Sequence record: OR896824.1
Direction: 5' to 3' (one strand)
DNA length: 64,000 nucleotides
DNA from: Escherichia phage SmurfNell
Both the position numbers and the translations under genes were made by a program. Of the stretch, positions 23,539 through 53,021 are shown in pieces (within the stretch, counting starts at the first letter, position 1; the number at the start of each line of letters is the position of its first letter). The notes under the pieces are model-generated. The model had not been told where the DNA came from. It made no database searches and was given only the letters and a program-made list of their open reading frames with translations.

Positions 23539-24036
23539 ATGAAATTAACACAGAGTAGATTAAAAGAGCTAATCTCCTATGACCCTGAAACTGGCGAATT
23601 TACCTGGCTCCCAAGAAAAACTTTAGCAAAGCATTTATGGAACGCTAAAGCAGGAACCTATGATAAATTAGGGTATCTTCGTATAAAAGTTGAAGGAGTT
23701 CAATATTTAGCTCATCGCCTAGCCTTCTTGTATATGACTGGAGAAATACCAGAAGGAAAAATTGACCATAAAGATACTAATCCGTCTAATTGCGCCTGGG
23801 ATAATCTCCGTGAAGCCACGAGTTCTCAAAATTCTATGAACTCGTGTGCAAGATCGGATAACCAGCTTGGAATGAAAAATATTCGTGTAAAAGGCACTTC
23901 ATTTCAGGTTAGGATAGGCAAAGACGGCAAATCTTATACAAAAACTTTTAAAACCCTAGAAGAAGCTATAGAATGGAGAGACACCAAACTACTAGAACTT
24001 CATGGGGACTTTGCAAACAACGGAGAAGCTAAATGA
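23539..24036 (+). CDS. HNH homing endonuclease (inserted between nrdA and nrdB)
   Basis: N-terminal ELISYDPETGEFTWL motif and EGKIDHKDTNPSNCAWDNLR HNH core. Confidence 0.7.
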   Translation: MKLTQSRLKELISYDPETGEFTWLPRKTLAKHLWNAKAGTYDKLGYLRIKVEGVQYLAHRLAFLYMTGEIPEGKIDHKDTNPSNCAWDNLREATSSQNSMNSCARSDNQLGMKNIRVKGTSFQVRIGKDGKSYTKTFKTLEEAIEWRDTKLLELHGDFANNGEAK

Positions 24037-25708: not shown

Positions 25709-26559
25709 AGCAATATATTGAAACTGGAAAACGTATTCTTGAAGAGGGTGTATGGGTAACGAATCCTAGAACAGGGGTTCGTTGCCTAACCATTATTGAT
25801 GCAGACTTTACCTTTAACGTAGGAGCAGGAGAACTGCCGCTAGTAACTACTCGTAAAGCATTTGCTAAACAAGCAATAATGGAAATGATCGGATATCTCC
25901 GTGGGTACGACTCAGCAGCACAATTCCGCGCTATTGGTGTTAATACATGGAATGCTAATGCAAATGAAAATATTGCCTGGCTAGGTAATCCATTCCGTAA
26001 AGGCGAGGATGATATGGGACGAGTCTATGGTGTTCAAGGACGTCATTGGACTAATTCTGATGGTATGGTATTTGATCAGTTAGCCAAAGTCTATCATAAT
26101 TTGAAAAGAGGGATTGACGATCGTGGAGAAATTTTAACTTTTTGGAACCCTGGGGAATTTCGTAGAGGATGCCTACGTCCGTGTATGCATACCCATCAAT
26201 TCTCTATTTTAGGTGATACACTATACCTAAACTCTTTCCAGAGGTCTAATGATTTCTTGCTGGGCCAAGTATTTAATATGGTGCAATGCTATGCACTTCT
26301 AGCTATTATGGCACAGATTACAGGTCTTAAGCCAGGTATTGCTCGTCAAAAGATTATTAATCTTCATATCTATGAAGATCAGTATAATGTTCTGATGGAG
26401 CACAAGCAATTCGATCGTGAACCTTTTGCACCTCCTACTTTAGAAATCAATCCAAATATTAGAACTTTGGATGATGTATTAACGTGGGTAAGTAAGGATG
26501 ATTTTACTGTTCGTGGCTATGAACACCATCCTGCTATTGCATACCCATTCACAGTCTAA
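25705..26559 (+). CDS. thyA: thymidylate synthase
   Basis: ThyA-like N-terminus ([15 protein letters not shown]), PLVTTRK motif and catalytic-Cys region ([10 protein letters not shown]); overlaps DHFR stop (ATGA). Confidence 0.8.
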
Positions 26560-26565
26560 TTCAAA

Positions 26566-26590
26566 TAGCCCTTCGGGGCTATTATATTTA
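26566..26590 (+). terminator. putative terminator downstream of thyA
   Basis: TAGCCC-TTCG-GGGCTA hairpin followed by an interrupted T-run (TTATATTTA). Confidence 0.45.
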
Positions 26591-26598
26591 AATTTCAT

Positions 26599-26627
26599 TT
26601 GCTTACTGAGTGAAATTCAAATATAAT
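26599..26627 (+). promoter_or_regulatory. T5-type sigma70 promoter
   Basis: TTGCTT-17-TATAAT. Confidence 0.55.
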
Positions 26628-26657
26628 ATACTTCTAATTTGACAGAAGGATTTAATA

Positions 26658-27236
26658 ATGACAGCCATAGTAGCATTTAAATATAAAGATAAAGTATACT
26701 TAGCTGGTGATCGTATGGGTTCTAATGGCTATACGAAACTGCTGGTTAAAAATCCGAAAGTATTCAAAATCTCTGATGATTTGTACTTCGGATACACTAG
26801 TTCCTTCTACATGGGACAATTACTAGAGCATAGCTTTACTGTACCACCACGTTTAGCAGATATTTCCGATGATAAATATTTATATACGGAAATAGTACCT
26901 AAATTACGTGATATGTTTAACCAGAAAGACTTTGGCGAAAAGAAAAATGAAAAATATGCTGAACCTAATCTGGGACAATTTATTATGCTCTACAAAGGAA
27001 GAATCTTTATTTTCCAATCTAATGCTTCTATTCTAGAAGTTGAATATGCCGGTGTAGGCTGTGGAGGAGAAGATGTACTTTCCAGTATTCGTACAGGTTT
27101 AGCTATTGCGGATTGTCGAGCCACAGATTTAGATGTAGATGATATATTTGAAATCATTGATCTGGCTTTTACGCATTGTGCAGATTATATGTGTGGTGTA
27201 TCTTCCCAACATGATGTTTTAGTAATTGGAGAATAA
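26658..27236 (+). CDS. HslV/proteasome-beta-like Ntn-hydrolase protein
   Basis: N-terminus MTAIVAFKYKDKVYLAGDRMGSNG aligns by eye with HslV ([23 protein letters not shown]), including Thr1 after Met removal. Confidence 0.5.
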   Translation: MTAIVAFKYKDKVYLAGDRMGSNGYTKLLVKNPKVFKISDDLYFGYTSSFYMGQLLEHSFTVPPRLADISDDKYLYTEIVPKLRDMFNQKDFGEKKNEKYAEPNLGQFIMLYKGRIFIFQSNASILEVEYAGVGCGGEDVLSSIRTGLAIADCRATDLDVDDIFEIIDLAFTHCADYMCGVSSQHDVLVIGE

Positions 27237-27238
27237 AT

Positions 27239-27508
27239 ATGTCTATTCTTTTATCTGCTTTAGAAGCAAAACAAAATACTATTGCTAGTATTAAAAAGGA
27301 AGTAATTGACTTAGAGTCACTTATTGCCGTAGAGATTGACAAAGCCATCAAAGATAAAGAATTTAATTGCCACATCCAGGGACTGACTGAATACTCAGAA
27401 AACGCTAGAAATAGCGTTATGCAAAAACTTAGCAAACTAGGTTATGTTGTGGAAGCTAAGTATGAACAGCGTGAAGGTTTTTGGCTTGAAATTGATTGGA
27501 GCAAATAA
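27239..27508 (+). CDS. hypothetical protein (89 aa)
   Basis: ORF tightly packed between the HslV-like gene and rnh. Confidence 0.45.
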   Translation: MSILLSALEAKQNTIASIKKEVIDLESLIAVEIDKAIKDKEFNCHIQGLTEYSENARNSVMQKLSKLGYVVEAKYEQREGFWLEIDWSK

Positions 27509-27984
27509 TGTCGGTTTTCCACATATATACAGATGGTGCATGTAAAGGCAATCCTGGTTTAGGTGCGTGGGGATTCGTTGTCTATAATGATAATGATGAT
27601 CGTATTGGCTCTAAATCTGGCTTCAGCCCTAAAACTACTAATAACGAAATGGAACTTACTGCAATTGTAGAAGTTCTTCGTTGGTCTACTAAGAAAGATA
27701 ATCGTCCAGTAATTATCTACACTGATTCTGCTTACTGCAAAAATGGTATGGAAAGCTGGATGTGGTCTTGGCAGAAGAAAGGCTGGAAGAAGGGAGATGG
27801 TGAAACTCCTCTTAATCTAGAACTCTGGCAAGAAGCATTTAAACTAACTCAACAGTATATTAACTTCCATGATACCAATCCAACCTTTGTTAAGGTTAAA
27901 GGTCACTCAGGTATTCGTGGTAATGAAGAAGTTGATGCTCTATGCAATACTGTAATTACTGAGCAAGAACTTGCTGAGATGTAA
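27496..27984 (+). CDS. rnhA: ribonuclease H (RNase HI family)
   Basis: IYTDGACKGNPGLGAWG, TNNEMELTAIVEVL and IIYTDSAY motifs of RNase HI. Confidence 0.85.
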   Translation: MEQIMSVFHIYTDGACKGNPGLGAWGFVVYNDNDDRIGSKSGFSPKTTNNEMELTAIVEVLRWSTKKDNRPVIIYTDSAYCKNGMESWMWSWQKKGWKKGDGETPLNLELWQEAFKLTQQYINFHDTNPTFVKVKGHSGIRGNEEVDALCNTVITEQELAEM

Positions 27985-35407: not shown

Positions 35408-35436
35408 TTGCTTGAACGCTAAATTCTCTGTATAAT
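35408..35436 (+). promoter_or_regulatory. T5-type sigma70 promoter upstream of nadR-pnuC
   Basis: TTGCTT-17-TGTATAATAT plus ATTTATAAATTTGAGAGAGGAATCAAAT leader. Confidence 0.7.
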
Positions 35437-35466
35437 ATATTTATAAATTTGAGAGAGGAATCAAAT

Positions 35467-36522
35467 ATGATTAAGACTGGTCTAGTAATTGGTAAGTTCG
35501 CGCCATTAACGCGTGGTCATATTAACCTAATAAACACAGCAGCAACTATGTGTGAACGAGTTATTGTTGTAGTTAGTCATGATAATCGTTGGCTGGATAA
35601 GCAGAACACACGTGATCAGGAAGTATTACAGTTAAAGAATCGACTTCGTTGGTTAGAACAAACTTACGCGGATATTGAGCACATTTCGGTAGAGTACATT
35701 ATTGAAGATGATATTCCTGAATATCCGAATGGTTGGCCGGAATATGCTAGAATCCTTAATGAAAATTACGGACATTTGCCTGAGATCACCGTTTTCTCTA
35801 GCGAACTAGACTATGATGCAGAATATAAGAAATATCTGCCGAAGTTTGGTCATTATATTGTAGATTCTGATCGGACTCGTGTTCCAATCTCAGCTACAAT
35901 GATTCGTAATGATCTTATGAAGTATTGGGAGTTTCTTCCTAGCGTAGTTCGTAAAGATTACGTGCGTAAGGTTGTAATCATTGGGACTGAAAGCTCGGGA
36001 AAGACTACTTTAACAAAATACCTTGCGAAGCTATACAACACTTCGTGGGTAGAAGAATATGGCCGAACGTATTGTGAAGTTGATCTAGTTGGTAACGAAA
36101 ATCTACTTATCAGTGAAGATTACAGTAAAATTGCGTTCAGACACAAAGAGCTAGAGTTTGAGGCAGAACGTACTGCAAATAAGATCATGTTTGTAGACAC
36201 AAATGCTTTTATTACTGAGTTCTACCACAGACTTTATGAACATCGTAAGAATCCTGTGGTTACAGCAATTGCAAAAGAAGAACATTACGATTTAGTAATT
36301 GTTCTAGCGCCTACTGTTAAGTGGGTAGATGATGGTTTACGTATTAACTCCGATCGTTCAATTACTTCTGAACTGTTCGAGCAGATGAAGAAAGAATTTC
36401 CAAATCAGTTCCCTGAAGGGCGTACTGTTTACATCGACTCCCCGGACTACAAAGTTCGTATGGACGAAGCAGTAAACGCAGTAGACTGGCTGATTCATCA
36501 CTTTAACGTTGGAGAGTTTTAA
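35467..36522 (+). CDS. nadR: NadR-like bifunctional NMN adenylyltransferase / ribosylnicotinamide kinase
   Basis: Cytidylyltransferase (H/T)xGH motif region (GKFAPLTRGHINLI) followed by a P-loop kinase domain (VVIIGTESSGKTTL); start 35467 after GAGAGAGGAA RBS. Confidence 0.75.
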   Translation: MIKTGLVIGKFAPLTRGHINLINTAATMCERVIVVVSHDNRWLDKQNTRDQEVLQLKNRLRWLEQTYADIEHISVEYIIEDDIPEYPNGWPEYARILNENYGHLPEITVFSSELDYDAEYKKYLPKFGHYIVDSDRTRVPISATMIRNDLMKYWEFLPSVVRKDYVRKVVIIGTESSGKTTLTKYLAKLYNTSWVEEYGRTYCEVDLVGNENLLISEDYSKIAFRHKELEFEAERTANKIMFVDTNAFITEFYHRLYEHRKNPVVTAIAKEEHYDLVIVLAPTVKWVDDGLRINSDRSITSELFEQMKKEFPNQFPEGRTVYIDSPDYKVRMDEAVNAVDWLIHHFNVGEF

Positions 36523-52421: not shown

Positions 52422-53021
52422 ATGACTAATAAGAAAGAAGAAAAGACTAACCTGTTCCACTCCGTTCACCAATCTAACGAGTATACTTTTTTCTTTGACG
52501 AGGAACTCGGGCCAGCAGATGAGTATCGTGACTTATCTATGATCCTGGTGCAGGCTAATGAAGGAGATGTCATTAATCTGATGATTAATGGGCCTGGTGG
52601 TTATGTTGATACTGCTGCACAGCTATCTAACCTGATCGCTAACTGTCGTGGAACGGTTATTGGACACCTGCTCGGTCCTAGTGCTTCTGCTTACTGCACA
52701 ATCTTCCTGTCTTGCCACGGTTGGGTTGTTCATCCACACTCTACGCTTATGGGACATACGTTCTCTGGCGGATTCTGTGAGAAGGGTCAAGAAATCAAGA
52801 AAGCCTATGAATCTTACAATCAGTTTGTAGAAGATATGATGCTCGATATCTACTTCCCGTTCTTCTCCATCGAAGAAATTGAGGATATGGTAAAAGAGAA
52901 CAAGAATATCTATCTCAACAGCAAGGAAATCAATAAGCGTATTGAGAAATTGGCAGCATACCGCGAGGAGCAATTCAGCAAAGCTCAATGTCCTCACCCT
53001 GAGGAACATGGAGAAGTGTAA
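52422..53021 (+). CDS. ClpP-like serine peptidase
   Basis: INGPGG, GPSASA (Ser) and VVHPHSTLMGH (His) segments resemble the ClpP catalytic motifs. Confidence 0.5.
   Translation: MTNKKEEKTNLFHSVHQSNEYTFFFDEELGPADEYRDLSMILVQANEGDVINLMINGPGGYVDTAAQLSNLIANCRGTVIGHLLGPSASAYCTIFLSCHGWVVHPHSTLMGHTFSGGFCEKGQEIKKAYESYNQFVEDMMLDIYFPFFSIEEIEDMVKENKNIYLNSKEINKRIEKLAAYREEQFSKAQCPHPEEHGEV

Follow-up and report, generated by a model that had tools for sequence, protein, structure and literature searches.

The gene at positions 26658..27236 (+) of the 64,000-nucleotide stretch of Escherichia phage SmurfNell analysed here (OR896824.1; the whole stretch is called the window) probably encodes a stand-alone, propeptide-less peptidase with an N-terminal threonine, a member of the group I clade of the proteasome-beta/HslV superfamily. 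We hold this reading, together with the mechanism proposed below, with moderate confidence. The open reading frame (ORF) starts with ATG, encodes 192 residues with the N-terminus MTAIVAFKYKDKVYLAGDRMGSNG and most probably belongs to the AAH group of proteasome homologues. Upstream lies the thymidylate synthase gene thyA (PF00303, E 3.9e-68) and downstream the RNase H gene rnh, and a preliminary description of this DNA, made from the sequence alone, had given the coordinates exactly and had placed the gene between thyA and rnh. That description called the product an HslV- or proteasome-beta-like N-terminal nucleophile (Ntn) hydrolase. The superfamily assignment stood up to a domain search (PF00227) and to modelling of the fold, whereas the HslV label did not, as the equivalog models for HslV fail to recognise the protein.

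Predicted fold and catalytic residues

The protein matched PF00227 (Proteasome; MEROPS T1) over residues 2-189 with an E-value of 1.2e-9 (38.5 bits against a gathering score of 22.4), as did 15 of 18 relatives, and it also matched PHROG 1040, 'peptidase HslV family', with an E-value of 1.9e-21. The AlphaFold2 model, built on a 123-sequence alignment, had a mean predicted local distance difference test score of 97.3 and a predicted template modelling score of 0.91. It consists of a beta-sandwich core with helices at residues 50-59, 71-89, 137-153 and 160-177 and without a fifth helix, reproducing the alpha-beta-beta-alpha arrangement of Ntn hydrolases with an S1-S11 core and flanking helices H1-H4. 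As far as prediction allows, an Ntn-hydrolase fold of the proteasome-beta type is established.

Residue conservation was counted on an alignment of 156 sequences from among the best hits of an exhaustive HMMER search, which returned 2,402 representative clusters at E<=1e-3 and 546 at E<=1e-10. With Met1 included in the numbering, Thr2, Asp18 and Lys34 match Thr1, Asp17 and Lys33 of mature proteasome beta subunits and HslV exactly. Thr2 (codon 26661..26663, +), the predicted N-terminal nucleophile after removal of Met1, aligns with Thr1 of both HslV and PrcB and is threonine in 156 of 156 sequences. Of the other two residues of the putative catalytic triad, Lys34 (26757..26759, +; Lys33 in mature numbering) is equally invariant (156/156), and Asp18 (26709..26711, +; Asp17) is aspartate in 155 sequences and glutamate in one. 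A Met-Thr start was found in 160 of the 167 retrieved relatives; a propeptide is therefore predicted to be absent, and the nucleophile would be exposed by removal of Met1 alone. These counts favour the threonine after Met as the would-be nucleophile, as the preliminary description had proposed, and the HslV-like spacing of Lys, Asp and Gly that it had noticed is also recovered, with Asp18, Lys34 and Gly45 in register with HslV. It had named beforehand two findings that would speak against it, the lack of an Ntn fold and a poorly conserved Thr2, and in both cases the opposite was found.

Gly45 opens a signature block at the S4/H1 junction (G45-Y-T-S-S-F-Y-M-G-Q-L-L-E-H; 26790..26831, +), in which G45 is retained in 155, S49 in 149, G53 in 141 and Q54 in 143 of the 156 sequences. 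The block contains the equivalent of the oxyanion-hole glycine, since hhalign places G45 on the oxyanion-hole Gly45 of HslV. An offset-based mapping, in which the oxyanion Gly47 fell on Ser48, was superseded by this profile alignment of the near-invariant Gly45 with HslV Gly45. At the start of helix H1, where HslV and 20S beta subunits have GxAGxxAD, the family carries GYT(S/T)SF(R/Y)MGQLL. The S1 pocket of 20S beta subunits is lined by the S4/H1 junction, and by analogy the strong conservation of the block in this region suggests a narrow specificity.

The equivalent of the GSG motif, which carries Ser129 in 20S beta subunits and Ser124 in HslV, is G134-C135-G136 (27057..27065, +), aligned with 'IGSGG' of HslV. 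Both glycines are strongly conserved among the relatives (G134 in 156/156, G136 in 155/156), and the position between them is cysteine in 76, serine in 68 and alanine in 7 of the 156 sequences. The window protein has Cys135 and so lacks the serine, a residue that is auxiliary and not defining.

Relationship to HslV and the 20S beta subunits

The NCBIfam models for HslV (TIGR03692 / NF003964) gave no match to the window protein at E<=1 and were touched weakly by only 3 of 18 close relatives, with a best E-value of 4.8e-6. The 20S beta equivalogs scored far below their cutoffs, with 14.7 bits against 191.9 for the bacterial model (TIGR03690) and 12.6 against 224 for the archaeal one (TIGR03634). 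A BLASTP comparison with HslV of E. coli K-12 was not significant (E 0.34), and recent capture of the gene from the host can therefore be dismissed. When a deep family profile was used, HslV proteins ranked nearest among the solved sequences (E 7e-12 to 1e-9), followed by BPH (3e-8) and actinobacterial PrcB (~4e-7), and hhalign aligned the family with E. coli HslV at 97% probability. Judged by these profiles, the window protein is not an HslV orthologue in the sense of family membership; the peptidase family is best described as a sister of HslV and BPH within the 'group I' proteasome homologues.

Placement in the AAH group and distribution

Fuchs, Alva and Lupas described HslV, BPH, AAH, CPH and PPH in 2021 as compact homologues without insertions or helix H5 (PMC8665760). 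In their survey the AAH group is found in Streptomyces and other Actinobacteria, alpha-proteobacteria, some Firmicutes and many phages (PMC8665760). With the signature block as retrieval pattern we found 444 relatives in a scan of one genome per species, and relatives on 457 viral contigs; 196 phage records carry relatives as well. The best 80 of the 444 genomic relatives come mostly from Streptomyces, Azospirillum, Mesorhizobium, Devosia and Ensifer, followed by Myxococcota, Paraburkholderia and a few Firmicutes. The peptidase most probably belongs to the AAH group, because both its predicted architecture and this host distribution fit.

Two further observations concern the family at large. 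Cellular relatives with 32-36% identity, all annotated as hypothetical, are carried by conjugative rhizobial megaplasmids of ~0.46-0.95 Mb (PLSDB), whose hosts are Sinorhizobium, Rhizobium, Mesorhizobium and Paraburkholderia isolated mostly from legumes. Some members have C-terminal extensions of 100-200 residues, among them A0A2D1GNJ8 (388 residues) and A0A2I7R1C1 (288 residues) in BFVD. A Pfam search of these extensions for a fused domain gave no match, and the extended proteins may be 'RPC'-type homologues or a new fusion.

The gene itself is already known, being annotated in public phage records, and its clade was described bioinformatically in 2021. Many public records contain a 100%-identical 192-residue protein. 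In RefSeq records such as those of EPS7 and OSY-STA, among others, it is labelled 'peptidase HslV family', the identical copy in phage S114 is a 'proteasome subunit-like protein', some copies are simply 'hypothetical protein', and the 99.5% identical copy of phage INF11 is a 'threonine-type endopeptidase'. Searches of the literature for experiments on HslV-like or proteasome-like proteins of phages gave mentions in genome announcements and the 2021 bioinformatic survey only.

Search for a partner unfoldase

The preliminary description had implied a partnership with HslU, which was not borne out. Neither an unfoldase in the window nor a conserved neighbour of the gene was found. A tblastn search of the 64-kb window with E. 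coli HslU and inspection of its P-loop ORFs revealed no AAA+ unfoldase. The sole tblastn match was the Walker-A stretch of a NadR-like gene, one of four P-loop ORFs whose products are the NadR-like nicotinamide mononucleotide (NMN) adenylyltransferase/kinase, PhoH, an origin-binding-type helicase and a DnaB-like helicase. Across 50 kb of the closest RefSeq relative no unfoldase is annotated either. The NadR-like ORF (35416-36519, +) encodes a bifunctional protein with cytidylyltransferase-like and AAA_28 kinase domains and corresponds to the NMN adenylyltransferase gene of a relative, where it adjoins a gene for a PnuC-like transporter, making up a phage NAD+ salvage module.

All-against-all clustering of the flanking ORFs from 80 genomic and 83 viral loci gave no conserved neighbour beyond lineage-level synteny. 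Large clusters of flanking ORFs in high-GC genomes proved to be shadow ORFs overlapping the peptidase gene itself and were discarded. In the three phage contexts annotated with Pfam, the genes are for nucleotide metabolism or methylases or are unknown, and none encodes an unfoldase. The PADLOC models of defence systems were matched neither by the window protein nor by five relatives.

In E. coli, hslU adjoins hslV. The C-terminal tail of HslU is held by Phe54, Phe57 and Gln114 of HslV (PMC6429459), and the basic pore residues of HslV are Arg86, Arg89 and Lys90 (PMC5777263). In the hhalign alignment, whose loops are unreliable at such distance, the former correspond to F50, G53 and E127 and the latter to D91, E94 and K95, so that two of the six contact and pore residues are kept, and the position of Phe57 is taken by a near-invariant glycine in a weakly aligned loop. 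Table 1 of Fuchs et al. lists no HslV for Actinobacteria (PMC8665760), a phylum in which the peptidase family thrives, and a paper on a jumbo phage remarks on 'HslV without HslU'. On balance it appears more likely that the protein is a stand-alone enzyme like BPH than that it is a client of HslU.

The accessory slot and its putative early promoter

The window derives from a T5-like phage of the EPS7 type, genus Epseptimavirus (Demerecviridae). Its thyA-rnh region is 99.3% identical to that of Salmonella phages OSY-STA and 3-29 and ~99% identical to that of Escherichia phage EPS7, and the full region is present in ~123 of 408 T5-like records. In T5, thyA is followed by an annotated promoter and then by rnhA, and the peptidase gene is absent. 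In SLAM_phiST45, another Epseptimavirus with flanks 98.7% identical to those of the window, an unrelated ORF of 84 residues occupies the place of the peptidase gene. A T5-like phage with a copy only 50% identical still carries the gene between thyA and rnh. The peptidase gene is accessory.

Directly past the thyA stop lies a terminator-like hairpin with an 8-bp stem and a UUCG loop (AATAGCCC-TTCG-GGGCTATT; 26564..26583, +), which is kept in T5 and SLAM_phiST45. It is followed by a candidate early promoter of the sigma-70 type (TTGCTT-17-TATAAT; 26599..26627, +) with a perfect -10 element, which aligns with the 'putative promoter' before rnhA in T5. Both elements came to light when the sequence was read and aligned with the promoter annotated in T5; a consensus promoter and terminator scanner found nothing significant in the region, the -35 element matching at 3 of 6 positions and the T-run of the hairpin being short. 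Hairpin and promoter are common to T5, SLAM_phiST45 and the window, and the sequences diverge right after the -10 element. The gene that comes next is rnhA in T5, the 84-residue ORF in SLAM_phiST45 and the peptidase gene in the window. This pattern of conservation and divergence marks the site as a cassette-exchange slot right behind the putative early promoter.

A second variable element is found just upstream. In OSY-STA, EPS7 and most close relatives, a cassette of ~357 bp with a 309-nt gene for a DUF3307 'membrane protein' lies between thyA and the peptidase gene, and it is missing from the window at 26559/26560, past the thyA stop. It is a clean indel, with its end at the shared sequence TCTAATTCAAATAGCCC.

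A ribosome-binding site (AGAAGGA; 26644..26650, +) can be read 7 nt 5' of the peptidase ATG. Beginning 2 nt past the peptidase stop, an ORF of 89 residues (27239..27508, +; phrog_13270, unknown function) runs into the start of rnh (27496..27984, +; PF00075, E 1.1e-30), and this spacing, a gap of 2 nt on one side and an overlap on the other, suggests translational coupling. The 89-residue ORF is probably cotranscribed with the peptidase gene. It is not an obligate partner of the peptidase, because it is retained, as is rnh, in SLAM_phiST45, which has no peptidase gene. The early timing of the nucleotide-metabolism genes of T5 is established. On the strength of this timing and of the T5 annotation, we infer that an early transcript from the putative promoter would have the peptidase gene as its first cistron, continue through the 89-residue ORF and end with rnh as its last gene.

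Proposed mechanism and alternatives

In the account that we favour, the gene would be transcribed early in infection from the conserved putative promoter that serves rnhA in T5, and the methionine aminopeptidase of the host would remove Met1 and expose the threonine nucleophile. By analogy with HslV and with BPH, which forms a heptameric double ring, the subunits would build a double ring enclosing the active sites. The particle would then cut a limited range of peptides or proteins, and it would do so without an unfoldase supplied by the phage for this purpose. Since the gene is dispensable and is swapped between near-identical phages, a host-modulating or niche-specific accessory function is more likely than a role in core replication or assembly.

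Several points weigh against this account. The term 'peptidase' is itself deduced from conserved residues, and the cysteine at the Ser129 position and the GYTSSF sequence at the N-terminus of H1 point to a non-canonical active-site environment. BPH, the structurally closest homologue, showed no activity in vitro on standard substrates (PMC5777263). The placement in the AAH group is based on size, helix content and host distribution; independence from host HslU is argued indirectly; and the check for an unfoldase was confined to the window, a part of the phage genome, and to 50 kb of one relative.

An alternative is that the protein works as an HslV analogue, docking on the HslU hexamer of the host, replacing or mixing with host HslV and so redirecting ATP-dependent proteolysis. 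We regard this as unlikely. It would account for the rank of HslV as the nearest solved sequence in the deep-profile search (E 7e-12 to 1e-9) and for the 97% hhalign match, for a Met-Thr start without a propeptide as in E. coli HslV, and for F50, a conserved aromatic residue that aligns with Phe54 of the HslU pocket (PMC6429459). The window also has no unfoldase of its own, while E. coli encodes hslU beside hslV. To be set beside these arguments are the four of six contact and pore residues that differ from HslV in the hhalign alignment, whose loops are uncertain at this distance, among them the near-invariant glycine at the Phe57 position. A stand-alone peptidase might, on the other hand, be the wrong description of the chemistry, and the Ntn Thr1 machinery might serve not bulk proteolysis but the reaction of a connectase-like transpeptidase or ligase, or of an amidase whose target is a small molecule or one processing site. 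We consider this just as doubtful as docking on HslU. Connectase, a specific ligase with the same triad, belongs to the superfamily (PMC8665760), the inertness of BPH on generic substrates would be explained, and the persistence of GYT(S/T)SF(R/Y)MGQLL as the most conserved block from Streptomyces to T5-like phages suggests a narrow, conserved specificity.

It is still more improbable that catalysis is irrelevant and that the protein is a mimic, a decoy that poisons HslV rings or titrates HslU, or else the product of a drifting passenger gene. The gene is dispensable for T5-like phages and sits in an indel-prone slot, next to a small membrane-protein gene that is also variably present, as would be expected of a passenger. 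However, the catalytic residues are invariant or nearly so in 156 sequences down to ~30% identity, a pattern indicating selection on catalysis, the protein is 100% identical in many independent isolates, and position and reading frame are kept in the T5-like phage with the 50%-identical copy.

As to what a stand-alone peptidase or its HslU-docking counterpart would do for the phage, we suggest only tentatively that it acts early and independently of an unfoldase on one or a few specific host proteins, for example a regulator of the stress response, of defence or of the cell envelope, or else that capture of HslU re-targets ATP-dependent proteolysis; we would not rate this proposal as probable. 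If either were true, this would be the first time that a function is defined for a proteasome-family protein of a virus, and a T5-like phage with E. coli K-12 would become a tractable system for finding the substrates of 'orphan' homologues of the AAH/BPH type. These orphan homologues (BPH, AAH, CPH and PPH) are widespread and none has a known substrate, BPH being the sole one studied biochemically. The phage that carries the gene described here is lytic, infects E. coli K-12 and Salmonella and is open to genetic manipulation, and natural, isogenic-like comparators without the gene are at hand in T5 and in Epseptimavirus isolates with another ORF in the slot. The phage-host pair is thus a convenient entry point to the role of these proteins.

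The ClpP-like ORF and a lineage-specific insertion

The preliminary description had also drawn attention to a ClpP-like ORF at 52422-53021 (+) and had taken the two genes together as a sign of phage control of host proteolysis. The 199-residue product is indeed a genuine Clp-family protein, matching PF00574 above the cutoff (E 1.3e-6), phrog_1827 'ATP-dependent protease' and, by phmmer, ClpP of Coxiella (E 1.8e-5). The serine and histidine positions of ClpP are kept, and the aspartate position is asparagine. Joint control of host proteolysis found no support, as nothing links this ORF to the peptidase gene. It lies 25 kb away, between a deoxynucleoside monophosphate kinase gene and the holin and endolysin genes, and no ClpX-like partner for it was found in the window. 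The Clp-family match and the location outside the head module rule out that it is the T5 prohead protease.

Elsewhere in the window, an HNH_3 endonuclease ORF of 165 residues (23539-24036, +; PF13392, E 1.2e-16) overlaps the 5' end of nrdB. At this position OSY-STA has no more than a gap of ~108 bp, and the ORF is probably a homing-endonuclease insertion specific to the lineage of this isolate.

Comparison with known proteasome homologues

With HslV (ClpQ) the window protein shares the predicted fold, the Met-Thr start, the set of Thr1, Asp17, Lys33 and Gly45 and the G-x-G-G motif. It differs in being only ~20% identical and below the equivalog cutoffs, in having no HslU gene adjacent or co-encoded in the window, and in the divergence of its H1 start and, as far as the loops can be aligned, of its pocket and pore residues, with a longer pore loop. 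Compared with the 20S beta subunits, bacterial PrcB and archaeal PsmB, the window protein has neither a propeptide nor H5, falls far under their equivalog cutoffs and has no alpha-subunit partner, a second proteasome-family gene in the window not having been searched for systematically. BPH (PDB 5OVS, 5OVU) gives a weaker profile E-value than HslV does (3e-8) and has an unlike host range, and its loop is strongly acidic, whereas that of the window protein is a mixture of Lys and Glu.

PPH resembles the window protein as a phage-borne group I proteasome homologue. It is described as a protein of ~140 residues without H2 (PMC8665760), whereas the window protein has 192 residues and an H2 predicted at 71-89, which rules out that it is a PPH. 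The closest correspondence is with AAH, whose host distribution the family matches and whose compact group I build the window protein appears to share, with no propeptide, helices H1-H4, no H5 and no insertions. Within this group, the T5-like phage proteins would form a subclade set apart by the cysteine at the Ser129 position and by an H2-S7 loop 3 residues longer than in most members.
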